A program made the translations under genes and the position numbers. 64,000 nt of DNA from a virus, in IMG/VR virus record IMGVR_UViG_3300005563_000031, positions 1-64,000 of that record; one strand, given 5' to 3'. Numbering within the stretch: position 1 is the stretch's first letter; each line of letters opens with the position of its first letter. Below are positions 33,814-53,006 of this stretch, in pieces. The notes under the pieces were generated by a model. The model was not told the DNA's origin, did not search any database, and saw nothing but the letters and a program-made list of their open reading frames with translations.

Positions 33814-34056
33814 ATGCCTATGGCTCCCCACGGTGCGGGCCCTTGCTACGTGTGCGGACGTACGCACCCTGGGGAGCTTTGTGACGGAACAAAGATAAAG
33901 GTTTGCAATACCCGGCACTGTACGGTAACGGATGCAATCTTTACCTGCCAGGGCTGCGCCGCGAAGTGCTGCTGCCACACGTGCGCGGTGTCGCTTGCAG
34001 ACGGGTTATTCTGCTACGACTGCCGCCCGGCGGTAGACGACCGAATACTAGGCTAG
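33814..34056 (+). CDS. Cys-rich Zn-finger protein
   Basis: multiple CxxC. Confidence 0.55.
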   Translation: MPMAPHGAGPCYVCGRTHPGELCDGTKIKVCNTRHCTVTDAIFTCQGCAAKCCCHTCAVSLADGLFCYDCRPAVDDRILG

Positions 34057-34065
34057 ATTCTACGC

Positions 34066-34095
34066 TTGCATCCTAGATAGATAGTCTATATACTA
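34066..34095 (+). promoter_or_regulatory. sigma70-like promoter with operator
   Basis: TTGCAT-N17-TATACT; ATAGTCTATATACTA 34081-34095. Confidence 0.75.
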
Positions 34096-34237
34096 TTCCC
34101 ACAGTAACCGGAGTCCACGCCATGTTTAACGTCACCCTTCGTAGCTTGCCCATGTCCGCTTTCTCAGGTCCGCGCAAGCGTTGTGCAAAAGCAACCAAAA
34201 CCGTTGCTAAGCGCGAGAAGAAGGCAAAGGTGCGCAA

Positions 34238-34501
34238 ATGAGCACCACCCATACATTTTACGCCAGCACGTGTCCTTCATGCACTCGCATGCCGAATAGC
34301 CCCGGTCTGCAAGCTCGTAACGAGCGGGGCCGGCTAGTGCAGGGCTGCGTGGATGAATTCCATACAGGACACGTTATGGGTGAAGCTGCTATTTGGCATA
34401 ATCGTCCCGAAGCTAAAAAACTGCGCGCTGCCCTCAAATTGGGGCGGCGAGGCGGCGTCACGCTTTTTGCACCGGCTGCTAGAATCTCGCTTGCACCTTA
34501 G
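34238..34501 (+). CDS. hypothetical protein
   Basis: coupled to an upstream 39-aa basic ORF at 34122-34241. Confidence 0.55.
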   Translation: MSTTHTFYASTCPSCTRMPNSPGLQARNERGRLVQGCVDEFHTGHVMGEAAIWHNRPEAKKLRAALKLGRRGGVTLFAPAARISLAP

Positions 34502-34520
34502 GTAATTAGTCTATATACTA
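34491..34520 (+). promoter_or_regulatory. sigma70-like promoter with operator
   Basis: TTGCAC-N17-TATACT; TTAGTCTATATACTA 34506-34520. Confidence 0.75.
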
Positions 34521-34908
34521 TCCCTACGTTATCAAAACAGCCCGGAGTTACCGCCCCCATGTCCGCTAAGCACCTGCCCATCGAAAAGAACGGCAAAACC
34601 GTCCCGGCTTGCGATACGCAGAAAAAGAATACCGCACACCTGCGATTTTCTACGGACGGTCAAACTTCTTGCCGACGCTGCATGCGCGTCGCCGGCTACA
34701 ACTACAACCCTTAACGCTATTTCCACAGTAACCGGAGCCCGTATCATGTCCGTATTTGAACTAGGGTATACGCTCGACGAATTCACCGCCGAGGTGAATC
34801 GCGAGTCTCGGATCCAGTACACCACCGAGCAGACGGCACCGTTTTGGAATCGGGGCCAATCCCCCGCCCATGCACGTGCCGTGCTGTCGCGTAGGGGAGT
34901 GTAAGACC

Positions 34909-35853: not shown

Positions 35854-35931
35854 GAGGTCGATTGGTCTGCACGGGTAGACGCCGCCGCCGGGCGGCGTTT
35901 TACTGAATCTCGACTTTTTTAAAATCTCCAC

Positions 35932-35960
35932 TTGCAATTAGGAAAATAGTCTATATACTA
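35932..35960 (+). promoter_or_regulatory. sigma70-like promoter with operator
   Basis: TTGCAA...TATACT; ATAGTCTATATACTA 35946-35960. Confidence 0.7.
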
Positions 35961-36002
35961 ATCCTCAGTCGATAACGTTTACCTAGTCCGGAGTTCCGTA
36001 CC

Positions 36003-42691: not shown

Positions 42692-43927
42692 ATGGAAAAA
42701 TGGGAACGGGAGGCTAAAACCTTCGCAAAATGGTGGCACACGGGACAGTACCGTAAGTATACCAACGACACCGTGCCGTACTACCTGCACTGCGGTGCGG
42801 TTGCGCGGTTGCTGAAAACACACGTACCTAGCGCGACGCGCGAAATGATTATCGCAGCGTGGTTACACGACACGCTCGAGGACACGGATGTTACGGCGCT
42901 TGAAATCTACAATACCTTTGGCTCCGTGGTGCTACAGCACGTCGAGGATCTTACCGAGCGTAAGTACCCCGGCTGCGGTCGACGCGAACGCAAAGAGCGG
43001 GAACTCGCACGACTTTCGCAAGTCTCGATTGGATCTAAAACTATTAAGTTAGCTGATCTACTCGACAATGCGAAGGATATACTCGAGAAGGACAAGGATT
43101 TTGCGGTGGTGTACTTGCGCGAGAAACGCGACTTACTTACCTACGCGCTAAAGGACGGCGATCCGGTGCTGTGGGCGTTGTGCGATCGCGTGGTGGAAGA
43201 CGGTTTAAAACTGTTGTCAGAATTTAAGGGGATTTCCAGCATGAAAACGGGCTTAACAGATATCACGTTAATTGTCGATAGATCCGGATCGATGAATAAG
43301 ATTTACAATGACACCATTGGCGGTCTCAATTCCTTTTTGCAATCGCAGCGCGCCGTGGAAGGCGAGGCAGTGTTTTCTGCCGTACAGTTTGATGATAAGT
43401 ACGAACAGGTCGTGACAGGCATCGACATACAACGCGTAACGAATTTCACGCCTGGGTATGACTTTATGCCACGCGGTTCCACAGCACTGTACGATGCGCT
43501 GGGACGCACTATTACGGCTATTGGCGCGCGGTTGAAGGCGTTGTCTGAAGAGGCGCGGCCTGAACGCGTAATGGTCGTGATCGTTACCGACGGCAAAGAG
43601 AACGCGAGCGAGGAATTTACCAAGAAGCAGGTGTTTGATATGATTAAACACCAAACCGACGTGTACAAGTGGGACTTTACCTACATCGGCGCAAACCAGG
43701 ATTCCATGCAGTCTGGAGCTGCTATCGGCATCGCTGCGAGCAAAACGATGGATTACTCGCATACAGGTGTAGGCGCACGGGGTGCCTTCGCTGCTGCATC
43801 TAACTACACGCACAGTTTCCGGGCCGCCCCAACCCGCGAGGCTGCGAGTGCGAGTGCATTCACGGCCGAGGATCGCAAAGCGGCGGCGGGCGATAGTGCG
43901 GGACTTAAGCCGGACAGTACCGTTTAA
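42692..43927 (+). CDS. (p)ppGpp hydrolase-like HD domain fused to a vWA domain
   Basis: HTGQYRK...PYYLH, AAWLHDTLEDT, IKLADLLDN; MIDAS DRSGS, GSTALYDA, IVTDGKEN; internal start at 43241. Confidence 0.85.
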   Translation: MEKWEREAKTFAKWWHTGQYRKYTNDTVPYYLHCGAVARLLKTHVPSATREMIIAAWLHDTLEDTDVTALEIYNTFGSVVLQHVEDLTERKYPGCGRRERKERELARLSQVSIGSKTIKLADLLDNAKDILEKDKDFAVVYLREKRDLLTYALKDGDPVLWALCDRVVEDGLKLLSEFKGISSMKTGLTDITLIVDRSGSMNKIYNDTIGGLNSFLQSQRAVEGEAVFSAVQFDDKYEQVVTGIDIQRVTNFTPGYDFMPRGSTALYDALGRTITAIGARLKALSEEARPERVMVVIVTDGKENASEEFTKKQVFDMIKHQTDVYKWDFTYIGANQDSMQSGAAIGIAASKTMDYSHTGVGARGAFAAASNYTHSFRAAPTREAASASAFTAEDRKAAAGDSAGLKPDSTV

Positions 43928-43969
43928 TAACACCCGCACTCCTCCTCTCTTATCATAGAAGGGTAACGT

Positions 43970-45475
43970 ATGGTCACTGCAGTAAAGGTACAAGGTAATG
44001 CGCTCGTAGACGGCGACGGTACGCCGCTACAGCTGCGCGGTGTAAACTGTTCGGCGCTCGAATTCGTGGCGATCCAATACGCCTCCGCATCCCCCAAAAC
44101 CAACTTCGATAACTGGGGCGGCCAAAAGCCGAATCTCAGCGCTGTCAAGTCCTGGGGCGCCAACAGCATCCGTGTGCCTCTCAACGAGCAAAGTTACCTT
44201 GGACTCGTATGCACTGACCAAACCGGTGCGCAACTTTTGGCAGATCCGGGCGGTAACTACCGCAGTGCTGTGAAAGCGATCGTGGACAGTGCGACCGCAT
44301 TGGGGTTGGCGGTGATTTTGGACTTGCACAAGAACACCGCCAACTTCACACCGGCCGGCGCCAGTACGGCAGTGCCTGGCTTGTCCAACACGAGCGGACA
44401 GTCGGAGATGGCGGATGCCGACCACAGCTACGACTTCTGGTCGGCGGTTGCGAACGATTACAAAACCTACCCCAACGTGCTGTTTGACCTCTTTAACGAG
44501 CCGCATATTGACAATTTCCAAAATCCCAGCACTTTCTCACCAAACCCCGGCACTAGCTTGCCGGCAGGACTGAACACCGAAGCGGCATGGGCGTGGGCTG
44601 TGTGGCGCGACGGGGGCACCGGTAAGCTGATCTACGCCAACAACCAGACCTACTCGCAGAACTATGCCTCTGCCGGCATGCAGGCCATGTTGGATGCCGT
44701 GCGCGCGACCGGCGCCACGAACATATGCATGGCGGGCGGGGTATCGTGGGCGCAAGACCTTGCGTTGTGGACGCAGTTTTGTCCCATCGATCCGATCAAA
44801 CAACTGGCGTGCTCGTGGCATGCGTACCCGAGCCAACAGAACCCCGCCTACCCGAGCTATCCGCCGGGCACGTGGTGGGGGCAGCCGAAGGGCTCGTTTG
44901 ATTACGCAGCCGACATTCTCGCCGCCGGCTACCCGATCATTATCGGCGAAACAGGAGACGATCCCAACAACCAACTCATGCCTGTACTGTTGCCGTGGGC
45001 GGATGCGCACAAAGTATCTGTTACCGCGTGGACATGGGATGTGGGGTGGGGGAATGATTCACTCATTGCGGATGCGAGTGGCACACCTGTAAACACCGGC
45101 ATCGCGTACAAACAATGGCTTCAAACGCACACCTCCGGAGGTACTCCTGTGTCCACTACCCAAAATGCAGCCCTGTCGATCGCCTACAACAGCGTGGCCG
45201 GTTTCCCGGCGGGCAGCGTCGTTGACCACATCAACGTTGCACTTACGGCGAAAAACAACACCGCCAACACCCCGCCTGCCAAAAACGTCGCGCCCGGCAC
45301 TGCCAATGTGACCTTCACAGGACTCGCACCGGACACGTACCAAATTGCCGTGCAAGCAATGCCAGCGACGGGCAGCGGGTTTGGCACGCCGGCAAGCGGC
45401 TCGATTACCATTACGCAAGTCAACACCACTATCTCGTTGTCGCTGCCAAGCACTGTCACTGCTACACAGCCGTAA
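43970..45475 (+). CDS. glycoside hydrolase family 5 (cellulase-like) with C-terminal Ig/FN3-like domain
   Basis: LRGVN, WGANSIRVPL, VILDLH, LFNEP (acid/base), WHAY, IIIGETG (nucleophile), AWTW. Confidence 0.9.
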   Translation: MVTAVKVQGNALVDGDGTPLQLRGVNCSALEFVAIQYASASPKTNFDNWGGQKPNLSAVKSWGANSIRVPLNEQSYLGLVCTDQTGAQLLADPGGNYRSAVKAIVDSATALGLAVILDLHKNTANFTPAGASTAVPGLSNTSGQSEMADADHSYDFWSAVANDYKTYPNVLFDLFNEPHIDNFQNPSTFSPNPGTSLPAGLNTEAAWAWAVWRDGGTGKLIYANNQTYSQNYASAGMQAMLDAVRATGATNICMAGGVSWAQDLALWTQFCPIDPIKQLACSWHAYPSQQNPAYPSYPPGTWWGQPKGSFDYAADILAAGYPIIIGETGDDPNNQLMPVLLPWADAHKVSVTAWTWDVGWGNDSLIADASGTPVNTGIAYKQWLQTHTSGGTPVSTTQNAALSIAYNSVAGFPAGSVVDHINVALTAKNNTANTPPAKNVAPGTANVTFTGLAPDTYQIAVQAMPATGSGFGTPASGSITITQVNTTISLSLPSTVTATQP

Positions 45476-45738
45476 TGGGTCTTCGAACGACCGTTGCAGG
45501 ATTGGAACAGTGGGCAATCTTGCGCGACGTGTCACTGGATTTGCCCAAGCCGGGTGTGCTCAAAGCATGTCCGTTTTGCGGGCATCCGGCCGCATTTGCT
45601 GACAATAGCAAGCGCTACCAAGGACACGACAAGTACGTTATTGCCGTGTCCTGTTCCAACACGAGCTGCGGTGTGGTGACGCCGGGTCACTACACCACAC
45701 GAGAGACTGCGGCCGAGGCGTGGAACCGGCGCGTGTAA
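45475..45738 (+). CDS. Lar-family restriction alleviation protein
   Basis: LKACPFCG...C...C...AAEAWNRR. Confidence 0.8.
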   Translation: MGLRTTVAGLEQWAILRDVSLDLPKPGVLKACPFCGHPAAFADNSKRYQGHDKYVIAVSCSNTSCGVVTPGHYTTRETAAEAWNRRV

Positions 45739-45754
45739 CAATTCGGTGACATTT
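45736..45754. repeat. trailer arm of a long-range inverted repeat bounding the tRNA array
   Basis: TAACAATTCGGTGACATTT is the reverse complement of 52692-52711 except for a 1-nt bulge. Confidence 0.85.
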
Positions 45755-45759
45755 GGTGT

Positions 45760-45835
45760 TGGATCACCCGGATGGAATCGAACCATCATGTACGATGTTC
45801 AAAGCATCGTTGGGATACCAGTAACCCACAGGTGA
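45760..45835 (-). tRNA. tRNA-Gln(UUG)
   Basis: loop CTTTGAA; TTCGATT T loop; CCA. Confidence 0.85.
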
Positions 45836-45838
45836 AAA

Positions 45839-45973
45839 ATGAGTCGATTTGAACGTGTGGTGATCCAACTGCTGATCATTATCGCTAATAGGGTAGCGCG
45901 CAGTGCATCACCTGCAGACAGAATAAACATCGATCACGACGGGTGGCCGATGTACGGCGACAAACCCTTTTAA
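45839..45973 (+). CDS. 44-aa ORF filling the spacer between two antisense tRNAs
   Basis: MSRFERVVIQLLIII...; AGGTG RBS; exactly spans the spacer. Confidence 0.45.
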   Translation: MSRFERVVIQLLIIIANRVARSASPADRINIDHDGWPMYGDKPF

Positions 45974-45974
45974 A

Positions 45975-46050
45975 TGGATCAGGCGGTTGGAATCGAACCA
46001 ACGTGAACTGCGTTCAGAGCGCAGTGGGGATGCCAGCAACCCACACCTGA
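45975..46050 (-). tRNA. tRNA-Gln(CUG)
   Basis: loop CTCTGAA; CCA. Confidence 0.85.
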
Positions 46051-46058
46051 GAATTTCT

Positions 46059-46241
46059 ATGACAACAGAGAAAACTGCTATTTGCGGAGCGATCCGGCCT
46101 CAAGAAAAGCCTACGTGCCGACGTTCGCAAAAGATTGGCGGGCCGCGCTATGTTTGTGGACGCGAACCGAAGCACGAGGGGCCGTGCGGCTGCTGGCGGT
46201 TTTTGTCGCAGGTCGCTGCTGCGAAATTGGCGGGAAGGTAA
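46059..46241 (+). CDS. small Cys/His-rich ORF between antisense tRNAs
   Basis: ICGA...YVCGREPKHEGPC. Confidence 0.45.
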   Translation: MTTEKTAICGAIRPQEKPTCRRSQKIGGPRYVCGREPKHEGPCGCWRFLSQVAAAKLAGR

Positions 46242-46300
46242 GGAGTTGCACCCTACTTTTGGGGTTTGGAGTCCCATAGCTCGCTCCGAGCACCGACCCG
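46228..46300 (-). tRNA. tRNA-Trp(CCA)
   Basis: loop CTCCAAA; TGCAACT T loop; CCA. Confidence 0.75.
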
Positions 46301-46307
46301 TGAAACT

Positions 46308-46670
46308 ATGCCTATCTACGGTAGTCTAACACTACGCGCACGAATACTGGCAAACGATGAGCCGGCGTGGTTGAAAAAGCACGCACGCCGCGATTACATC
46401 GTGCAAGTACATCTTGCCACACCACGCTGGTACTCGCGTAAAGAAGTCGTACGGCTTAAGCAGAAGGCGCACGAGCTGTCGAAAGCGAAACGACGCAAGT
46501 ACGTACTGGACCACATCATCCCCCTCACACACAAGCGCGTATGCGGTTTAAACGTACACCACAATATGCAAATCATCGATGCCGGCACGAATGCGCGCAA
46601 ATCCAATCACTGGTGCGAGTGGCACGGGGAGTTATTCGCGGAACCTGAGCAGTTTCCACTGTTTCGATAG
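46308..46670 (+). CDS. HNH endonuclease
   Basis: ATPRW, LDHIIPL...VCGLNVHHNMQII....NARKSN. Confidence 0.9.
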   Translation: MPIYGSLTLRARILANDEPAWLKKHARRDYIVQVHLATPRWYSRKEVVRLKQKAHELSKAKRRKYVLDHIIPLTHKRVCGLNVHHNMQIIDAGTNARKSNHWCEWHGELFAEPEQFPLFR

Positions 46671-46758
46671 CGTGCCGGGCGCCGCGTGCCCATCGGTGCT
46701 AGGAAGTTTTGTGGCCCGCAAGCGGGGAAGATTCCTACGACGGGACGCCCATGCACTC

Positions 46759-46847
46759 TGGCGGAAGGCAGTGAACTCGAATCACAAACGCTTATCGCGT
46801 TCCATCCGCTTTCCAAGCGGCTCGAGGCCCTGCCTCGTTTACCTTCC
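46759..46847 (-). tRNA. tRNA-Ser(GGA)
   Basis: loop TTGGAAA; long variable arm; G73-CCA. Confidence 0.85.
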
Positions 46848-46852
46848 AATGT

Positions 46853-46941
46853 TGGCGGATACCGTAGGAGTCGAACCTACACGGCCCGTTAAGACCCTAA
46901 CACCGCTTTCAAGGCGGGCGAGCGCGCCAGTGCGGGTATCC
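46853..46941 (-). tRNA. tRNA-Ser(UGA)
   Basis: loop CTTGAAA; long variable arm; G73-CCA. Confidence 0.8.
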
Positions 46942-47015
46942 GAAAAGTAGGTGAGGCCCGGTGCAGCGGATAGCACTTGGACAGGTGCGTCCACACCGGG
47001 GGTCACCGAGCAGCT

Positions 47016-47059
47016 GAACCGGAACTGCGCTTGTTCCTTACTGGCCTTTCGGCCGGTTC
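47016..47059 (-). ncRNA. small three-way-junction RNA motif, copy 1
   Basis: GAACC-GGCC(GAAA)GGCC-AGTAA-hairpin-GGTTC. Confidence 0.55.
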
Positions 47060-47172
47060 GTTTGCGAGTATAAGGGCACTTGCGCGCGGGTGCAGTCGCT
47101 TACTGCACCTTGCGTCACGACCAACGCGCAGCAGGAGCGACACTGCCGCCATGGCGTCTAGCAAGTGTTTTC

Positions 47173-47260
47173 TGGCGGATGGCAATGGAGTCGAACCACA
47201 AGCGCTTGCGCACTCCATCTGTTTTCGAGGCAGTGCTGACACCGTGTCAGTTTACCATCC
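47173..47260 (-). tRNA. tRNA-Ser(CGA)
   Basis: loop CTCGAAA; long variable arm; CCA. Confidence 0.85.
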
Positions 47261-47373
47261 GTAAAATCTAAGGCGGTTAGGTTTAAGTAGGGGGCAAACC
47301 CTTACCCGGCGCCGGGCCCAGCATCACCGCAAGCCCCTACCAGTCTTGACCAGCAAGTACCGGTAGGAATGTT

Positions 47374-47462
47374 TGGCGGAAAGCAGTGTACTCGAAACAC
47401 ACACCCGTTAGGATGCCCTCTGTTTAGCAAACAGGTACGAGCGCCTGCCCGTTTTACTTTCC
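47374..47462 (-). tRNA. tRNA-Ser(GCU)
   Basis: loop TTGCTAA; long variable arm; CCA. Confidence 0.85.
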
Positions 47463-47468
47463 GTAAAT

Positions 47469-47547
47469 TGGTCCCCGCAGCAGCTTGGGGAGCTGCGACC
47501 GTCCGGTTAAAAGCCGGATGCTCTTCACCCGTGTGAGCTATACGAGG
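47469..47547 (-). tRNA. tRNA-Lys(UUU) with aberrant T loop
   Basis: loop CTTTTAA; T loop TCCCCAA; CCA. Confidence 0.7.
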
Positions 47548-47553
47548 AATGTT

Positions 47554-47629
47554 TGGTGCTCAGTGATGGAGTTGAACCATCTATCTCCGCGTTACGAATG
47601 CGGCGCATCGCCGGCAATGCTTACCGAGC
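47554..47629 (-). tRNA. tRNA-Thr(CGU)
   Basis: loop TTCGTAA; CCA. Confidence 0.85.
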
Positions 47630-47743
47630 TTATCGGAATAAGAAGACTGTACCAAACATGCTCGCACCATCGGCAGCAAAACACCGCGCGCCATCCTCGT
47701 AGTCGTTTGCCGCACTGTCTGCAGTTCATGTTGGAATTATACA

Positions 47744-47818
47744 TGGAGCCCCACGTTGGACTTGCGCCAACCCTCGCTACTTACAAGGCAGCTACACCGC
47801 TATCTGTGTTTGTAGGGC
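47744..47818 (-). tRNA. tRNA-Thr(UGU)
   Basis: loop CTTGTAA; T loop CGCAAGT; CCA. Confidence 0.8.
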
Positions 47819-47883
47819 GAAAAGTACCGCCGAGCCCCTGTGCACACGCAGGTATTGGAAAGGCCCGGCGGATTTTGCAATTA

Positions 47884-47924
47884 GAACCAGACGCTGGCGC
47901 CTTTACTGGCCTTTCGGCCGGTTC
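47884..47924 (-). ncRNA. small three-way-junction RNA motif, copy 2
   Basis: 22-nt identity to 47038-47059 with a different third helix. Confidence 0.55.
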
Positions 47925-47943
47925 AATATGCATACTAACATGT

Positions 47944-48019
47944 TGGTGCCTCACCGACGAATTGCACGTCGCGCCTCATCTTTACCAAAGATGCGTTCCG
48001 CTCGCAGAACTTGAGAGGC
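47944..48019 (-). tRNA. tRNA-Thr(GGU)
   Basis: loop TTGGTAA; CCA. Confidence 0.8.
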
Positions 48020-48026
48020 AGTAAAT

Positions 48027-48100
48027 TGGCCTCCACGGTTGGACTCGAACCAACAACAGCAAGCCTTCGGAGGGCTCGCGCCGTATCCGACGGCGTGGAG
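48027..48100 (-). tRNA. tRNA-Arg(CCG)
   Basis: loop CTCCGAA; CCA. Confidence 0.75.
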
Positions 48101-48107
48101 TTTAAAG

Positions 48108-48181
48108 TGGCACCCCCGGTTGGACTCGAACCAACATATCTGCCGTTCGTAGCGGCGGATCCTTGTTCCGAAGGCAGGGGC
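48108..48181 (-). tRNA. tRNA-Arg(ACG)
   Basis: loop CTACGAA; CCA. Confidence 0.8.
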
Positions 48182-48440
48182 GTAGAAAACTGTCCGGCGG
48201 CAGTAGGCGCGAGTACGGCTTGCGCTTTCGCCGCGCACTTACCTTAAAGGCCTGCCGGTATGGCCGTTACACCGGTTTGTAAAGGGCTTGGTAGTAAAAT
48301 AAATGGTTTAGCGTGTCTGAACACAGGCGCTCGCACACTGCCACACCACCGGCCAATAACCACCCTTTGTTTAGGTAGTCAGTGACTTCGTTATTAAAGT
48401 ACTGCAAGTTTGTGTTACTTACTACGATGTATTTCAATGT

Positions 48441-48536
48441 TGGTACTCGATGTAGGATTTGAACCTAACCCGTTGCAGCCAGTCCGACCGCTCTCGCACG
48501 CTTATAAGGCGCACCCGCACACCAGTGCTATCGAGT
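48441..48536 (-). tRNA. tRNA with UAU anticodon (Ile) and very long variable region
   Basis: loop CTTATAA; ~27-nt variable region; TTCAAAT T loop; CCA. Confidence 0.7.
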
Positions 48537-48631
48537 ATTGCTCCTTTCCGAGGGGCGGCGGGCAGTGTAGTTAGCGACGCTACACTGAGTTGGGAGCTAC
48601 CCAACCAACCCCGCAGGCCCCTCGTACTTCT

Positions 48632-48711
48632 TTGTTGCGGTAGCTGGACTTGCACCAGCCTTAAATCGGCTTATGAAACCGTGGCGAAACTACCTTCGAC
48701 CATATACCGCA
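48632..48711 (-). tRNA. tRNA-Met/Ile2(CAU), no encoded CCA
   Basis: loop TTCATAA; 3' end reads ACAA. Confidence 0.65.
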
Positions 48712-48883
48712 AAATTGTGCCCGCTTCGCTTTTCATTTCGTGGCAACGGACTAACACGCGGTGGCACCTATCAGCTCCCTACATGCATGCAACGCATTTG
48801 GGCGGGGATGGAGGCAGGGGTTAGGGAATGCGCATGTCTAGAATACGCCAATACACCTAAAGCCGTACCAACACCCCCATACC

Positions 48884-48958
48884 TGGTAGCGGGAGAGGGA
48901 TTCGAACCCCCGACCTTCTGGTTATGAGCCAGACGAGCTACCTCTGCTCTATCCCGCA
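48884..48958 (-). tRNA. initiator-like tRNA-fMet(CAU)
   Basis: loop CTCATAA; 1:72 mismatch; canonical D and T loops; CCA. Confidence 0.9.
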
Positions 48959-49023
48959 TCAAACAATGCCGCGTTCCTCTTATATACCGGATACGCGGCC
49001 AACCCGGTATTGCAATTCGAGGA

Positions 49024-49098
49024 GGTGCTGTTGGGACTATCCTACAGGAGAACAAAGGACAGACCGGACTTATGGACGCTACGTGTCCCAACAGCACC
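49024..49098 (-). ncRNA. 75-nt element closed by a perfect 14-bp stem
   Basis: GGTGCTGTTGGGAC/GTCCCAACAGCACC. Confidence 0.5.
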
Positions 49099-49128
49099 GA
49101 CAACCGAACTATACAGCGAACTTTGAAT

Positions 49129-49203
49129 TGGTGCCTCGAGAAGTGCTCGCACCTTCGTATCTGGGTTTTCAGGCCAGCGCTACTCTGTCTCAGCTATCGA
49201 GGC
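49129..49203 (-). tRNA. tRNA-Phe(GAA)
   Basis: loop CTGAAAA; atypical T loop; CCA. Confidence 0.75.
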
Positions 49204-49209
49204 AAATAC

Positions 49210-49295
49210 TGGTCCTCACGGCTGGACTTGCACCAGCACGCCGGTTAAGGCACAGCGTTCTCAACACTGCGTGTCTGCTGTTTCACCACGCGAGG
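49210..49295 (-). tRNA. tRNA-Leu(GAG)
   Basis: loop TTGAGAA; variable arm; CCA. Confidence 0.8.
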
Positions 49296-49302
49296 AATAG
49301 TT

Positions 49303-49551
49303 TCAACGGATCGTTTCAATAGTCTTACCATCCTCGTTCATAATGTAGGCGACGTTGTAGGAACAGGACTGGTCCATTCCCACTGTTACCTCTGTAGTTT
49401 CACCCGGTGCGTCGCCGCACTGTATAACCGCGCACAAGTTTTCCTTGTACGTTACGTGGACGGCTTTCGCCTCACGCACTGATATCGCTTCTGTGTATGA
49501 GGGCTTAGCGGGCGCTTCTGGCCCGTACTTATAGAATTTTACTGTCAACAT
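49303..49551 (-). CDS. hypothetical protein within the tRNA array
   Basis: AGGA RBS; AYIMNEDGKTIETI C-terminus. Confidence 0.7.
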   Translation of the reverse strand: MLTVKFYKYGPEAPAKPSYTEAISVREAKAVHVTYKENLCAVIQCGDAPGETTEVTVGMDQSCSYNVAYIMNEDGKTIETIR

Positions 49552-49581
49552 AGTCTACTCGTCCTACTACTGCTAAGAAAC

Positions 49582-49665
49582 TGGTACCTCTGGTGAGAGT
49601 TGCACTCACACACCTTGCGGCGCCGGAATTTGAAGCCGGTGCGTCTGCTGTTCCGCCACAGAGGC
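49582..49665 (-). tRNA. tRNA-Leu(CAA)
   Basis: loop TTCAAAT; variable arm; CCA. Confidence 0.8.
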
Positions 49666-49671
49666 AAAAGT

Positions 49672-49748
49672 TGGTATCCCCGGCGGGAGTTGCACCCGCA
49701 GTTGAACGGATTTTAAGTCCGCTGTGTCTGCTATTCCACCACGAGGAT
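49672..49748 (-). tRNA. tRNA-Leu(UAA) lacking the long variable arm
   Basis: loop CTTAAAA; ~6-nt variable region; CCA. Confidence 0.8.
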
Positions 49749-49751
49749 GAA

Positions 49752-49823
49752 TGGGCACCCACGGTTGGAGTCGAACCAACGCTGGTAGCTTAGGAGGCCA
49801 CTTTCGTTCCGCCGACGTGGGTA
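49752..49823 (-). tRNA. tRNA-Arg(CCU)
   Basis: loop CTCCTAA; reduced D arm. Confidence 0.7.
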
Positions 49824-49985
49824 TCACAGATGAACAGTACCTGCGACTACGGTAATGGCGAGGATAAGGCAGATCAGCAGCACCGCAATGTGCAGCAGTG
49901 GGCCCGGTTTGCCTATCATCGACATGATCGTGATGATCGCAGCGGCGATCAAAAATACGAGAACGAGAATTGCAGCAGCACTCAT
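49824..49985 (-). CDS. small two-TM membrane protein within the tRNA array
   Basis: AAGGAG RBS; MSAAAILVLVFLIAAAII. Confidence 0.65.
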   Translation of the reverse strand: MSAAAILVLVFLIAAAIITIMSMIGKPGPLLHIAVLLICLILAITVVAGTVHL

Positions 49986-50043
49986 GTTGGAAACTCCTTT
50001 TCTAACACGGGTGGGCGGTAGCAAGTAACGCTCCCGACACAGC

Positions 50044-50116
50044 TGGCACCCTCGGTTGGAGTCGAACCAACAGTCTGCGGCTTAGAAGGCGCGCTACCGA
50101 TCCGGCCGGCGAGGGC
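50044..50116 (-). tRNA. tRNA-Arg(UCU)
   Basis: loop CTTCTAA; CCA. Confidence 0.75.
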
Positions 50117-50122
50117 GAAGGG

Positions 50123-50195
50123 TGGAGCGGAAAATGGGAGTCGAACCCATCAGCGGCGTCGTTGGCAACGATACCTCACACCATGTGCATCCGCA
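50123..50195 (-). tRNA. tRNA-Gly(GCC)
   Basis: loop TTGCCAA; U73-CCA. Confidence 0.8.
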
Positions 50196-50230
50196 TGTTC
50201 AGTTCTTTCGTCCGTCCCACTGTTGCATTA

Positions 50231-50319
50231 TGGGCAACCACCCGAGAGGATTTGCCGCTACCTCTGACATCTCCCACTTAAAGGAGGGAGCGCTCTGGTG
50301 CTCTGAGCTACGAGTGTTA
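50231..50319 (-). tRNA. non-canonical tRNA-Lys(UUU)-like RNA
   Basis: loop CTTTTAA on a lengthened stem; 11-nt T loop; bulged acceptor. Confidence 0.55.
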
Positions 50320-50342
50320 TCAACAGTCGCCACGAAAGAATT

Positions 50343-50418
50343 TGGTGCATGCTGTTGGATTCGAACCAACTGCCTCCCGGTTATCAGCCGGGTGCGCATC
50401 CGTATGTGCCTCGCATGC
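50343..50418 (-). tRNA. tRNA-Ile(GAU)
   Basis: loop CTGATAA; CCA. Confidence 0.88.
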
Positions 50419-50530
50419 GAAATAGATGTGGGTATTTGTCCGGCACCCACCGAGCCGTGCGGCTATTGCAGCGTAACCGCGACACCTCCAGCGCTTGCAT
50501 TGGCACTGGACCGGGCCGTTAAAGGTGTAG

Positions 50531-50624
50531 TGAAGTAGGATGTTTGGATTTGCACCAAGACCTCTGTTATTCCGCACGTCTGCGGATTCGACAGTGCTCT
50601 TCTATGACTGAGCTAACACCCTAC
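50531..50624 (-). ncRNA. tRNA-like RNA with the anticodon loop replaced by an extended hairpin
   Basis: 8-bp acceptor, GCTC/GAGC D arm, 4-bp T stem, TCCGCA-GACG-TGCGGA hairpin; ends TTCA. Confidence 0.6.
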
Positions 50625-50645
50625 ATATTCACTATACCTTGAAGT

Positions 50646-50720
50646 TGGTCGGAGTAGTAGGAATCGAACCTACCTTGTCGTGCTCCCAAAGCACGCGATC
50701 AGCCACTGACCCACACTCCG
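50646..50720 (-). tRNA. tRNA-Pro(UGG)
   Basis: loop TTTGGGA; C1-G72; CCA. Confidence 0.88.
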
Positions 50721-50777
50721 ATGGCGAGTGTCTCTCCGCTCCTGTCACGCCTGGATCGCCCGGCGTTCGGCATTGGC

Positions 50778-50855
50778 TGGTGCGGGTAGCAGGATTTGAA
50801 CCTACGGCCCCGTGCGCCCGAGGCACGTGCTCTGACCAGACTGAGCTATACCCAC
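50778..50855 (-). tRNA. tRNA-Pro(CGG)
   Basis: loop CTCGGGC; G1-C72; CCA. Confidence 0.8.
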
Positions 50856-50865
50856 ATGTTAGAAT

Positions 50866-50942
50866 TGGAGCACCCGGCCGGACTTGCACCGACGATTTTA
50901 ACGCTTTGCAGGCGCCTGCATTTGCTGCTCTGCCACGGGTGC
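50866..50942 (-). tRNA. tRNA-Cys(GCA)
   Basis: loop CTGCAAA; U73-CCA. Confidence 0.82.
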
Positions 50943-50946
50943 GTGT

Positions 50947-51020
50947 TGGAGGGTCGTAATGGAGTCGAACCATTTATGGAGTCCGGTCACAGCGGAGTCC
51001 GGCTACCGAGCCAACGGCCC
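50947..51020 (-). tRNA. tRNA-His(GUG)
   Basis: loop CTGTGAC; U73-CCA. Confidence 0.75.
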
Positions 51021-51116
51021 ATTGTTTGTGCCTTCCCGCGCACGGCTTGCGGCCGGTCGATCGCGTGGCGCGAGTCACGGCGCACTCCGAGGTGCGCTGG
51101 GCTTGATCGACAAAGT

Positions 51117-51204
51117 TGGTACCTCTGGAGGGAATTGCACCCCCATGCCGTTTTACGGGCGCTGCGGTCTGAACGCAGTGTGTCTTCTGTTTCACCACAG
51201 AGGC
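51117..51204 (-). tRNA. tRNA-Leu(CAG)
   Basis: loop TTCAGAC; variable arm; CCA. Confidence 0.82.
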
Positions 51205-51213
51205 AAAATGAGC

Positions 51214-51345
51214 ATTAGGACAGTGCGCTGGTGCCGCGTTGGCATTCGCGCAAACCTCCGTTAGACAGCGCTATCTAACATCATCGATCCTGCTTTATAC
51301 AGCTTGCATAGCCCCACTCGATATGGGACACGGCACTGTCCTAAT
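51214..51345 (-). ncRNA. 132-nt multi-branch element closed by a perfect 13-bp stem
   Basis: ATTAGGACAGTGC/GCACTGTCCTAAT fills the Glu-Leu spacer. Confidence 0.5.
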
Positions 51346-51346
51346 T

Positions 51347-51421
51347 TGGTAGACCGTACGGGATTCGAACCCGCCTAACATGCTTGAAAGGCACGTTGCA
51401 TCACCGAGACGCATACGGTCC
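51347..51421 (-). tRNA. tRNA-Glu(UUC)
   Basis: loop CTTTCAA; CCA. Confidence 0.8.
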
Positions 51422-51596
51422 GTAAAATTTAAGTGGCTCTGGCGCATAGGGGTACTCGTGTGAGGCGCATGCGCCACTGGCGGAGACAGGTACCTGGCAC
51501 GACTTACGCACCGTTGCTGCGTCGTAACCTGCGCTGGCTTGCCAGGCGAGAGCGGTCTGTGCGGCAGAGCTACTAAGTATACCGCACGACAAACAC

Positions 51597-51674
51597 TGGT
51601 AGACGTGACGAGACTCTAACTCGTTAGGCTACGGTTGAGAACCGCACTGCGCGAGACACTTTGCATTCACGTCC
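51597..51674 (-). tRNA. tRNA-Glu(CUC)
   Basis: loop TTCTCAA; T loop TTAGAGT; CCA. Confidence 0.75.
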
Positions 51675-51682
51675 ATAAAAAT

Positions 51683-51754
51683 TGGTGGAGCTGTCGGGAG
51701 TTGAACCCGCAGGGTTTCCTTGCAAGGGAGACCCGTTGCCCGCAACACAACCCC
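51683..51754 (-). tRNA. tRNA-Ala(UGC)
   Basis: G3.U70, A73-CCA, TGC in loop. Confidence 0.78.
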
Positions 51755-51856
51755 GTGGTTCTTTGGTCTAGCCCAACATCTGACGGCTGGGCAGGCGCAC
51801 ATAACAGCAACGTCACCGGTAATTAACTGCTACATGTTGATCGCTTTTCGACTTAC

Positions 51857-51932
51857 TGGTAGGCCGCCAGGGATTCGAACCCTGGACCAACTGGTTAAGA
51901 GCCAGCTGCTCTTGCCGCTGAGCTAGCGACCT
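51857..51932 (-). tRNA. tRNA-Lys(CUU)
   Basis: loop CTCTTAA; canonical; CCA. Confidence 0.92.
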
Positions 51933-52030
51933 ATAAAGTTACGCTTCCGGTCATCTGCGCCGAATATCCCGTGGGCTAGTACCCACATGCTACAGGACAT
52001 GGACGGGCGTACAGAGCCGGACTTGCGTTC

Positions 52031-52121
52031 TGGTGCGTCGCGGATGGAATCGAACCTCGTGCCCTAAAGGGACCTGGTTTACAGCCAGGCGAGCGGCCAC
52101 CACTCCTTACTTGCGCAACGC
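52031..52121 (-). tRNA. tRNA-Tyr(GUA), atypical core
   Basis: loop CTGTAAA; variable arm; 8-bp acceptor; CCA. Confidence 0.75.
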
Positions 52122-52126
52122 ATGGT

Positions 52127-52198
52127 TGGTACCCGATGTGAGGATTGAACTCACTCCACCAACTTTGTAGGAGTCGGCGCCGTCCCAACGGTCCGGGC
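52127..52198 (-). tRNA. tRNA-Val(UAC)
   Basis: loop CCTACAA (C33); CCA. Confidence 0.7.
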
Positions 52199-52432
52199 AT
52201 AAACAAAAAGGATGACAATAGGCGTGCATCAGACGCCTCGTTTTACGTCACGGCTCGCGCCGCTTGGCTAGCTGCTCGCAGGTGGTCCGTAGACCACCAT
52301 TTTCGTCACCGCTTCTACCAGCGGCTCCTCGAACGTCGTTAGGCCGACTACCCAGCCAATTCTCGTATCCTCAAAAATCGTTGACGACCTATTTTTTATC
52401 GTGGTCAGCCGTCAGTGTTTTCCAGTCCTTTT

Positions 52433-52504
52433 TGGCGCCTCCAACGGGACTCGAACCCGTCACCCACTCGATAGACAGTCGAGTTTCACCCCAGGTGTAG
52501 AGGC
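52433..52504 (-). tRNA. tRNA-Asp(GUC)
   Basis: loop CTGTCTA (U37); G73-CCA. Confidence 0.78.
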
Positions 52505-52508
52505 AGGT

Positions 52509-52607
52509 TCTAACACTTAGCTGTAGGCCTGGGGCTCGAACCCAGCGCATCTCCGTTAACAGCGGAGCCTACACGCCCGGTGCAGTTGCCTACAGCAAAG
52601 TGTTAGA
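52509..52607 (-). tRNA. tRNA-Asn(GUU)-like RNA with extended acceptor helix, no CCA
   Basis: loop CTGTTAA; TTCGAGC T loop; acceptor continues into TCTAACACTT/AAGTGTTAGA. Confidence 0.65.
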
Positions 52608-52609
52608 TT

Positions 52610-52683
52610 TGGAGCGGACGGTGGGAATCAAACCCACCTCATTGCGTTGGAAGCGCAAGGCCCAGTCACTAGACCACGCCCGC
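52610..52683 (-). tRNA. tRNA-Gly(UCC)
   Basis: loop CTTCCAA; U73-CCA. Confidence 0.88.
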
Positions 52684-52691
52684 TCAAACCT

Positions 52692-52717
52692 AAATGTCAA
52701 CCGAATTGTTAAAGAAC
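52692..52717 (-). promoter_or_regulatory. boxA antitermination element overlapping the leader arm of the long-range inverted repeat
   Basis: minus strand GTTCTTTAACAATTCGGTTGACATTT; rrn boxA consensus is TGCTCTTTAACA. Confidence 0.75.
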
Positions 52718-52801
52718 GTCCGGTGATTTAGTTTGGGGGTGTTGGAAGGAGAGCGGTTGCTTTCCTTTTTGGCCCCCGTCCTGCACCGGGGGCAGGAGGG
52801 A

Positions 52802-52930
52802 TTAGAGCTTGGTACCTTCGAGTCGGGGCGCTGTTGGCATAATATTCCAACTATCGCGCCCAAACGTCGCCGCGACGACACATTGCTGCGCCGGATAGGC
52901 TAGACGTGAAGGTACTAAGGATCTAAACAT
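52802..52930 (-). CDS. putative leaderless 42-aa leader peptide of the tRNA operon
   Basis: ATG follows the -10 by 6 nt; MFRSLVPSRLAYPAQQCVVAATFGRDSWNIMPTAPRLEGTKL*. Confidence 0.45.
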   Translation of the reverse strand: MFRSLVPSRLAYPAQQCVVAATFGRDSWNIMPTAPRLEGTKL

Positions 52931-52966
52931 GTCTATATACTAAATTCGATTCGATACACATTGCAA
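52929..52966 (-). promoter_or_regulatory. tRNA-operon promoter with operator over -10/+1
   Basis: TTGCAA-N18-TAGTAT; ATGTCTATATACTA at 52929-52942. Confidence 0.65.
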
Positions 52967-52974
52967 GTACTTTC

Positions 52975-53006
52975 GTAAAAATGCCGGGAGTGGTCAGCTC
53001 CCGGCG
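52975..53006 (-). terminator. probable intrinsic terminator upstream of the tRNA promoter
   Basis: GCCGGGAG/CTCCCGGC stem followed by ATTTTT on the minus strand. Confidence 0.55.

Follow-up and report, generated by a model that had tools for sequence, protein, structure and literature searches.

A soil phage tRNA array framed by boxA and a leader-trailer helix, probably on the plan of pre-23S rRNA

Large tRNA arrays are common in phages. One example, the tRNA cluster of phage T4, comprises about 8 tRNAs, against 7 kb of array here, and is transcribed into polycistronic precursors that are processed by host RNases, with involvement of RNase III known from older literature. We know of no boxA and no array-wide closing helix described for T4, and to our knowledge the escape from Rho and the maturation of kilobase untranslated phage tRNA arrays are essentially unstudied. 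RNase III itself requires a duplex of about two helical turns. For bacterial rrn operons, both a boxA anchoring model and the role of RNase III at leader-trailer helices have been described (PMC10250234).

Here we analyze a block of tRNA genes of ~7 kb in a soil phage with a genome of 105,784 bp (~106 kb). The window, the whole stretch of DNA that was analyzed, covers 64,000 nucleotides (positions 1 to 64,000 of IMG/VR record IMGVR_UViG_3300005563_000031), and the array is flanked in it by Lar-like, GH5, lysozyme and tail genes. The elements of the locus, in the direction of the tRNAs, are as follows.

52975..53005, minus strand: intrinsic-terminator-like hairpin (8 bp, 7 of them G-C) with a T run, found by scan
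52937..52966, minus strand: candidate sigma-70-type promoter TTGCAA-N18-TAGTAT, directly 3' of the terminator, read from the sequence
52725..52936, minus strand: structured untranslated leader of ~210 nt, with a GC hairpin and a C-rich tract before boxA
52706..52717, minus strand: boxA-like element GTTCTTTAACAA; no other genomic site comes within one mismatch of GCTCTTTAACAA
52692..52711, minus strand: leader arm TAACAATTCGGTTGACATTT, 5' strand of the core helix, with a bulged U at 52699
52688..52724, minus strand: extended leader strand in the cofold (ACCGG, CGU, core arm, GGU)
45760..52683, minus strand: tRNA array, Gly-TCC first and Gln-TTG last, with structured spacers
45736..45754, minus strand: trailer arm AAATGTCACCGAATTGTTA, 3' strand of the core helix, complement of the leader arm minus one T
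45725..45757, minus strand: extended trailer strand in the cofold (ACC, core arm, ACG, CCGGU)
45475..45738, plus strand: convergent Lar-like ORF of 87 aa (PF14354, E = 1.4e-11)

ARAGORN called 23 tRNA genes in the array with default settings and 32 with relaxed ones, every one of them on the minus strand, and the rest of the genome yielded none. Rfam returned only tRNA-type matches within the array, with rRNA absent from the window and no rRNA gene nearby. The array opens with Gly-TCC at 52683, 8 nt beyond the leader arm, and closes with Gln-TTG, whose encoded CCA ends at 45760, 5 nt ahead of the trailer arm. A preliminary description had the arms bracketing ~40 tRNAs; the bracketing stands with these offsets, and the count has to be lowered to the ARAGORN range. 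At the far border, the TAA stop of the Lar-like ORF coincides with the outermost 3 nt of the trailer arm, and the ORF lies outside the RNA frame.

The two arms are joined by a core helix of 12 + 7 = 19 Watson-Crick pairs with one bulged U, the complementarity first described being reproduced when re-read at 52711-52692 / 45754-45736. The core is A/U-rich, and its arm motif occurs in exactly two copies in the 105,784-bp genome, the leader and the trailer. In the cofold, at a predicted energy of -41 kcal/mol, the helix grows to ~30 bp interrupted by internal loops, its segments running ACCGG/CCGGU, CGU/ACG, 12 bp, bulge, 7 bp and GGU/ACC, and the U-rich core of boxA comes to lie in an internal loop. 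With its 12 + 7 pairs, ~30 when extended, the helix reaches the length of duplex required by RNase III. The near-consensus boxA noted in the preliminary description was likewise found again and is unique in the 105.8-kb genome. It overlaps the leader arm by 6 nt, lies on the same strand as all tRNAs at 34 nt before the first of them, and matches 11 of 12 positions of the E. coli-type consensus (GCUCUUUAACAA type).

The boxA is situated ~220 nt downstream of the putative promoter, which itself follows the terminator-like hairpin. Since this hairpin would end the upstream tail/lysis operon, the array would need a promoter of its own; the one at 52937..52966 is a candidate only, as it matches 8 of 12 consensus positions and falls under the threshold of the promoter scan. 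A TTGACA within the leader arm was rejected as a -35 box, having no -10 box and a tRNA beginning 8 nt on. The 257-nt leader folds at -88 kcal/mol (z = -3.8), with none of 200 shuffles equally stable, and in isolation it is predicted to fold well alone, such that the leader arm may pair locally before the trailer is synthesized. A GC hairpin lies ~55 nt upstream of boxA, but no boxB- or boxC-like element was established.

The leader is closely matched in bacterial rrn operons. Over 16 nt (TTCTTTAACAATTCGG) it agrees at every base with the 16S-23S spacer boxA region of one Pseudomonadota genome (G072), and strings nearly identical to these 16 nt occur as multi-copy rrn elements in G399, G378, G318, G024 and G044. 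The last 11 nt of boxA, from its second base (TTCTTTAACAA), are present at the spacer boxA in 4 of 4 sampled Pseudomonadota operons, the full 12-mer was read in three of these four, and a near-variant, GTTCTTTAAAAA, stands at the 16S-leader boxA of G072. The layout is shared as well. In the sampled rrn operons, the pre-23S leader-trailer helix takes its 5' strand from the bases that overlap and directly follow boxA: in all four, the stretch beginning with AACAATT pairs with the 3' trailer of 23S, as in the phage. In G044, for example, CAATTCGTAGAGTCGA pairs with TCGACTCTACCGAATTG, and the AACAATTCGG/CCGAATTGTT pairing of the phage is the same helix base.

The same boxA also leads five more IMG/VR arrays (G559, G558, G557, G556 and L246) whose post-boxA sequences differ. 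In each, the best complement of the post-boxA sequence in 6-25 kb of downstream DNA is found just past the last tRNA of the main block, 7-77 nt after it where measured, with the trailer of G556 overlapping a tRNA call at the block end. The complement score exceeded 100 of 100 shuffles in four of the five arrays and 95 of 100 in L246. Sense-strand G.U pairs occur in 3 of the 5 helices; the non-Watson-Crick positions of the five core helices, in alignments read by eye, are four G.U against one A.C, a 4 to 1 excess too small for significance. The helices of the five lineages differ in sequence yet pair, which shows the design recurring across lineages, as distinct from covariation inside a single alignment. 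The arm and boxA sequences, their positions, the identity with the rrn spacer and the recurrence in other arrays are established.

Scans of IMG/VR and of metagenomes gave no close relative carrying both arms. One metagenome run (X5) contains contigs of a relative ~5% diverged, with indels at Lar and at several spacers. One contig (52702-53065) takes in boxA and the leader arm's first half, the inner half being spanned by none, and a second skips 45475-45731 (Lar missing or replaced) and continues for 40 nt from 45731 across the trailer arm. The closest relatives are P0002 (69%) and P0003 (58%, a 104-kb Logan contig); the array head has two further, distant relatives on truncated contigs, L197 and L166, and a search with the trailer predicted for L166 returned only its own leader. 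INPHARED phages yielded no near relatives and only tRNA-Met matches to Caulobacter phages, and IMG/VR, searched via GH5, the 99-aa ORF and the tail protein, yielded one unrelated GH5 carrier and no close relatives. Scanning IMG/VR for the exact arm gave two chance matches in unrelated coding DNA, and the extended leader string gave 17 matches (15 new loci plus L161 and L169), none of which adjoins a tRNA array. Loci retrieved with a 20-sequence tail-protein alignment were scanned for tRNAs around the tail gene (36 in IMG/VR, more from metagenomes, and 3 of 58 in genomes, 25 loci being scanned twice through duplicate records); no array lay less than 10 kb from the tail gene, and three isolated tRNAs were all that was seen. 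On the side of the host, the 22-nt arm was present in 0 of 151 genomes from the order of the best prophage-like match, and the 12 genomes from the order of G072 gave no further match. None of the sequencing runs is listed as RNA for this phage.

Taken as an inverted repeat, the pair of arms is unremarkable by score, since other exact 16-20-nt repeats occur in the phage genome. Its duplex energy is ordinary compared to random 57x60-nt pairs (P ~0.09), and duplex free energy was discarded as an uninformative statistic, such random pairs averaging -27 kcal/mol. These figures are what a chance complementarity spotted post hoc would predict, and the significance of the repeat comes instead from its position at the array borders, with both arms ≤8 nt from the array ends, which we estimate to occur by chance at ~1e-6. 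Nothing else in the 7.7 kb downstream complements the leader as well as the trailer does, whose score of 38 was attained by 0 of 100 shuffles (highest shuffled score 27), and the same arrangement recurs in the five other arrays, making coincidence very unlikely. The inverted repeat of the preliminary description fails on raw score and holds on position and on the 7.7-kb complement search. A functional boxA accompanied by pairing that is irrelevant to the tRNAs, with rrn spacer and 23S trailer borrowed separately and their complementarity inherited as baggage, has one point in its favour: real rrn spacer and trailer sequences share the innermost part of the arms (11 nt, AACAATTCGG / CCGAATTGTT), so that common origin alone could yield part of the pairing. 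The outer 8-9 bp (UGACAUUU/AAAUGUCA) have no counterpart in any of the four rrn operons examined, yet they pair, and five other arrays with lineage-specific helix sequences still pair, which implies maintenance, not decay. We give this explanation little credence.

The arms could alternatively be terminal inverted repeats at the level of DNA, either marking a mobile or invertible tRNA cassette or left as scars by the recombination that brought the cassette in, without any RNA function. Such elements typically carry an inverted repeat at each end, the array appears accessory in that it was not near the tail gene in the scanned loci, and the relative in X5 shows indels at Lar and between tRNAs. 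However, serine and tyrosine recombinases (PF00239, PF00589) are absent from the entire genome and none adjoins the array; the preliminary description, which saw no recombinase, was correct for these two families. Nor was a target-site duplication seen in the array flanks, and the joints listed in four metagenome runs include none at the arms that changes strand, the latter being weak evidence since the runs are contigs, which lose rare forms, and the joints seen are those listed. A DNA-level repeat would also leave unexplained the constant start of the inner arm within a boxA that points the same way as the tRNAs, the presence of this layout in rrn operons and the predominance of sense-strand G.U among the mismatches, and we regard it as unlikely.

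We consider it likely that the array is a single long untranslated operon on the plan of pre-23S rRNA, and the block is probably transcribed and trimmed by the rRNA machinery of the host. On the sequence evidence, the arms and boxA are a frame of the rRNA-operon style that acts at the level of RNA, by which Nus factors would be loaded and RNase III would cut. The mimicry of an rRNA operon proposed in the preliminary description was upheld, in that the boxA string, the rrn layout and the five further arrays with trailers of their own all fit; nothing supports the circularisation of the transcript that it also raised. In the mechanism we propose, transcription probably starts near 52937-52966 and, after a leader of ~220 nt, the nascent RNA would display boxA GUUCUUUAACAA, which may recruit NusB/NusE of the host, along with the remaining rrn antitermination factors, to RNA polymerase. 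Antitermination would then prevent Rho and internal hairpins from halting synthesis over 7 kb of tRNA and spacer RNA. The leader arm, which starts in boxA, would be placed to pair with the emerging trailer if it is held by polymerase as in rrnTAC anchoring, and the resulting helix of ~20-30 bp would loop out all tRNAs and serve as a substrate for RNase III, as a shield of the 3' end, or both. No phage-encoded RNase III was found in the genome, so the enzyme is assumed to be that of the host. RNase P and 3' exonucleases would then free the individual tRNAs.

More tentatively, pseudo-pre-rRNA framing of tRNA arrays could be a general strategy reached or exchanged repeatedly by many phage lineages, with the host rrnTAC hijacked both for antitermination and as a co-transcriptional chaperone, a proposition we hold as somewhat doubtful. 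On this reading, rrnTAC would keep hold of the 5' end up to the emergence of the 3' end, and only full-length array transcripts would close into a panhandle that resists exonucleases and enters the rRNA processing pathway, tying the supply of phage tRNAs to the control of host rRNA synthesis. A working rrn-style frame would represent a second phage route to Nus-factor antitermination besides lambda N and Q. It would also provide a natural leader-trailer and boxA module on non-ribosomal cargo that helps test the anchoring and chaperone model of rrnTAC, as well as a transferable architecture by which bacteria could be made to express long arrays of non-coding RNA. The signature of a host-type boxA with a closing helix could help predict which hosts uncultured phages infect and show where tRNA operons truly begin and end. 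Our literature search found no paper on a design of phage tRNA arrays that combines boxA with a closing helix.

Among known systems, the T4 cluster resembles this array in that phage tRNAs would be made as multi-tRNA precursors cut by host enzymes. As in the lambda nut site (boxA-boxB with N), a phage boxA on nascent RNA would render host polymerase resistant to termination; unlike nut, the array has no identified N-like protein or boxB hairpin, its boxA is of the rrn type whereas that of lambda is weaker, and its target is a helix-closed tRNA operon. The E. coli rrn leader, with its rrnTAC (NusA/B/E/G, SuhB and S4) and 16S leader-trailer helix, is similar: the leader strand of the helix closely follows boxA, and the helix closes only once the trailer is transcribed (PMC10250234). 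The anchoring model explains how ends 7 kb apart could meet. In E. coli, boxC comes 18-19 nt after boxA (PMC10250234), whereas in the phage the helix strand overlaps boxA, and the E. coli leader is arranged as boxB-boxA-boxC whereas equivalents of boxB and boxC are not established in the phage, where factor binding is presumed from boxA. Compared to pre-23S rRNA, the phage frame encloses 23-32 tRNAs and not 23S rRNA, its helix is shorter, at ~20-30 bp where the sampled rrn operons have 40 to >100 paired bases, and it adjoins the mature RNAs within 5-8 nt, unlike the sampled pre-23S helices. Unlike an rrn operon, it is phage-borne, has a putative promoter of its own and has no rRNA gene nearby. 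What the two frames share is the same boxA string, the 3' half of which opens the 5' strand of a long-range helix, a partner strand just past the last mature RNA, and several kb of untranslated structured RNA enclosed between them.

The source record is a 105,784-bp IMG/VR virus rated complete, of which the window covers positions 1-64000. Its tail genes are GTA-like (Phage-tail_3/Rcc01698_C, NlpC/P60), with relatives in phage contigs and in MAGs and genomes mostly of Pseudomonadota; the closest by tail protein, P0002 and P0003, were available as Logan contigs only. The host of this soil phage, which comes from a rhizosphere sample, is probably a member of the Pseudomonadota. ARAGORN called 23 tRNAs at the default threshold and 32 at a relaxed one, with none outside the array in the whole genome, and Rfam returned only tRNA-type matches and no rRNA. 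The array and its borders are laid out as follows.

53005-52983, minus strand: strong terminator-like hairpin from a scan, ending the upstream tail/lysozyme operon
52966-52937, minus strand: promoter candidate TTGCAA-N18-TAGTAT, after the terminator-like hairpin, from reading the sequence
52725-52936, minus strand: structured leader of ~210 nt ahead of boxA, from folding
45760-52683, minus strand: tRNA array with all tRNA genes of the genome (ARAGORN)
45475-45738, plus strand: convergent Lar-like ORF that terminates at a stop codon within the trailer arm

The leader was far more stable than its shuffles (z = -3.8) and contained a GC hairpin with alternative pairings and, directly 5' of boxA, a C-rich, G-poor tract. 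The products of the genes converging on the array (42692-45738, plus strand) are an HD/VWA protein, a 501-aa protein of the GH5 cellulase family and the Lar-like restriction-alleviation protein. L003, an otherwise unrelated phage contig, carries a GH5 gene 68% identical to this one. Elsewhere in the genome, repeats 40-49 nt long and up to 96% identical form a family with copies at 34053-34101, 34483-34522 and 35921-35972 and, outside the window and in inverted orientation relative to these, at genome positions 103082-103124 and 104143-104191. These are possible regulatory or recombination sites. Two array spacers share an exact 22-nt direct repeat (47038-47059, 47903-47924).

The preliminary description had placed two complementary arms around the array, and reading the sequence confirmed the coordinates and letters of both. 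Between the arms (52711-52692 and 45754-45736) there are 19 Watson-Crick pairs and a single bulged U (52699). A gap of 8 nt separates the leader arm from tRNA-Gly, and one of 5 nt separates the encoded CCA of tRNA-Gln from the trailer arm; the arm motif occurs exactly twice in the genome. The leader arm overlaps GTTCTTTAACAA (52717-52706). Allowing one mismatch to the boxA consensus, the genome contains this site alone, and neither boxB nor boxC was established beside it. When cofolded, the helix grew to ~30 bp with UCUU of boxA in an internal loop. Within the array, tRNA-Asn is flanked by a 20-nt inverted repeat (52509-52528 / 52588-52607, 95% complementary) that lengthens its acceptor stem by ~10-12 bp, drawing in 5' leader and 3' trailer sequence, and places a small closing helix inside the large one.

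It is the placement of the arms that is improbable; their raw score does not set the repeat above chance. The core of the helix is A/U-rich, its duplex energy ranked near the 9th percentile among random segment pairs, which is not unusual, and a self-BLAST of the genome returned a dozen other exact repeats of 17-20 nt. Nevertheless, nowhere else in the 7.7 kb downstream does a sequence complement the leader as well as the trailer, which scored 38 compared to at most 27 in 100 shuffles and 16 in both the reversed and direct-repeat controls, and both arms abut the borders of the array.

Relatives of this phage were found in IMG/VR and in soil sequencing. In IMG/VR, the short contigs L197 and L166 are 66-78% identical in DNA to the array head, including the first tRNA-Gly. 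In each, boxA precedes arm sequences that differ and are shorter; both contigs stop before the array end, and an exact search did not find the trailer predicted for L166. No covariation of the closing helix was established within the phage lineage. In the soil run X5, which contains a relative ~5% diverged, one contig spans boxA together with the leader arm's first half. A second contig jumps from 45475 to 45731, leaving out the Lar gene, and runs on across the trailer arm, indicating from contig coverage that the arm is kept where the neighbouring gene is not. The X5 contigs also skip four inter-tRNA spacers, two of them (among 50194-50341, 50489-50639, 51207-51346 and 51424-51625) replaced by ~31 other letters and two by only 1-4, showing that the spacers are subject to insertions and deletions and the tRNAs are retained.

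A scan of IMG/VR for GTTCTTTAACAATTYGG returned at least 105 loci. Among the matches listed, the motif lay 9-93 nt 5' of a same-strand tRNA array in ten loci, two of which (L151 and L216) have one common leader. Five arrays were analysed, four phage sequences fetched whole (G559, G558, G557 and G556) and L246, complete in its locus. The sequences after boxA differ among them (GGAUUCAG, GGAUGUUUU, GGUAUCCGCC, GGAUAUAAACUUA and GGAAUUUCUGU), and in all five the best complement of the leader within the 6-25 kb downstream sits directly 3' of the last tRNA of the main block.

G559: 77 nt past tRNA 27 of 27
L246: 20 nt past tRNA 25 of 25
G558: 7 nt past tRNA 24 of 26, then a gap of 1.2 kb
G557: 68 nt past tRNA 39 of 42, then a gap of 3.5 kb
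G556: overlapping a tRNA call at the main block end, then a gap of 8.6 kb

Against 100 shuffles each, the complement scored higher than all of them in four arrays and higher than 95 in L246. Since the five have little DNA in common with the array of the window, we treat them as separate instances of one design, not as a covarying alignment. Among the matches listed, ~90 of the 105 loci do not adjoin tRNAs (L154, L163, L172, L173, L176, L201, L202, L211 and others), many being proviruses of isolate genomes with the conserved context CTAATGTTCTTTAACAATTTGGAAAGTCGGAACAGCATACC; these may be phage nut-like boxA sites. At L245 (2234-2617, boxA forward), the same boxA precedes a 31-nt arm that pairs near-perfectly with a partner ~350 nt downstream, enclosing ~330 nt without an ARAGORN tRNA, upstream of four tRNAs, as a mini frame around an unknown RNA.

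The arms could instead be inverted repeats of a cassette acting at the DNA level, not an RNA frame. The array is clearly accessory, as the scanned relatives of the tail gene (36 IMG/VR loci, further metagenome loci and three of 58 genome loci) lack an array beside it. However, the whole genome encodes no serine or tyrosine recombinase, the array flanks carry no target duplication, and the joints listed for four metagenome runs included no strand-changing one at the arms, which is weak evidence as these runs are contigs. As read from the alignments, the core helices of the five arrays contain, on the transcribed strand, four G.U pairs (one each in G556 and G558, two in L246) versus one A.C (G557), too few for a formal test; G.U is tolerated only by an RNA helix. 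Moreover, a DNA repeat need not start inside a sense-oriented boxA, phage after phage, exactly as in rRNA (rrn) operons. We therefore consider a DNA cassette unlikely and favor the RNA frame.

In the RNA frame, transcription would start at the candidate promoter and pass through the leader, where boxA would load Nus factors into a complex like the rrn antitermination complex, so that the following 7 kb would be transcribed processively and Rho-resistant. The leader arm, tethered via boxA, would meet the trailer on its emergence to form a panhandle, presumably processed by host RNase III and then by RNase P and 3' exonucleases. PMC10250234 is the source for both the anchoring idea and the roles assigned to leader-trailer helices. 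Folding suggests that the leader could also adopt a competing local structure. In our search of the full-text literature, neither boxA nor a closing helix was described for phage tRNA arrays.

The closest likeness is to rrn operons. Among 401 sampled Pseudomonadota genomes searched with the 16-mer TTCTTTAACAATTCGG, allowing one mismatch, several complete genomes contained the query in multiple copies. It was matched exactly in G072, which additionally carries GTTCTTTAAAAAT 5' of its 16S. Rfam placed the matches in the 16S-23S spacer, 140-364 nt 5' of 23S. When each spacer was cofolded with its 23S 3' flank in four operons, the bases from AACAATT on formed the 5' strand of the pre-23S leader-trailer helix in all four, as in the sampled genome G044, where CAATTCGTAGAGTCGA pairs with TCGACTCTACCGAATTG. 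The rest of the phage arms, UGACAUUU / AAAUGUCA, matched none of the four operons read. Judged by sequence, phage AACAATTCGG / CCGAATTGTT is the base of this same helix, and the phage design is the rrn boxA and leader-trailer helix transferred to a phage tRNA operon.
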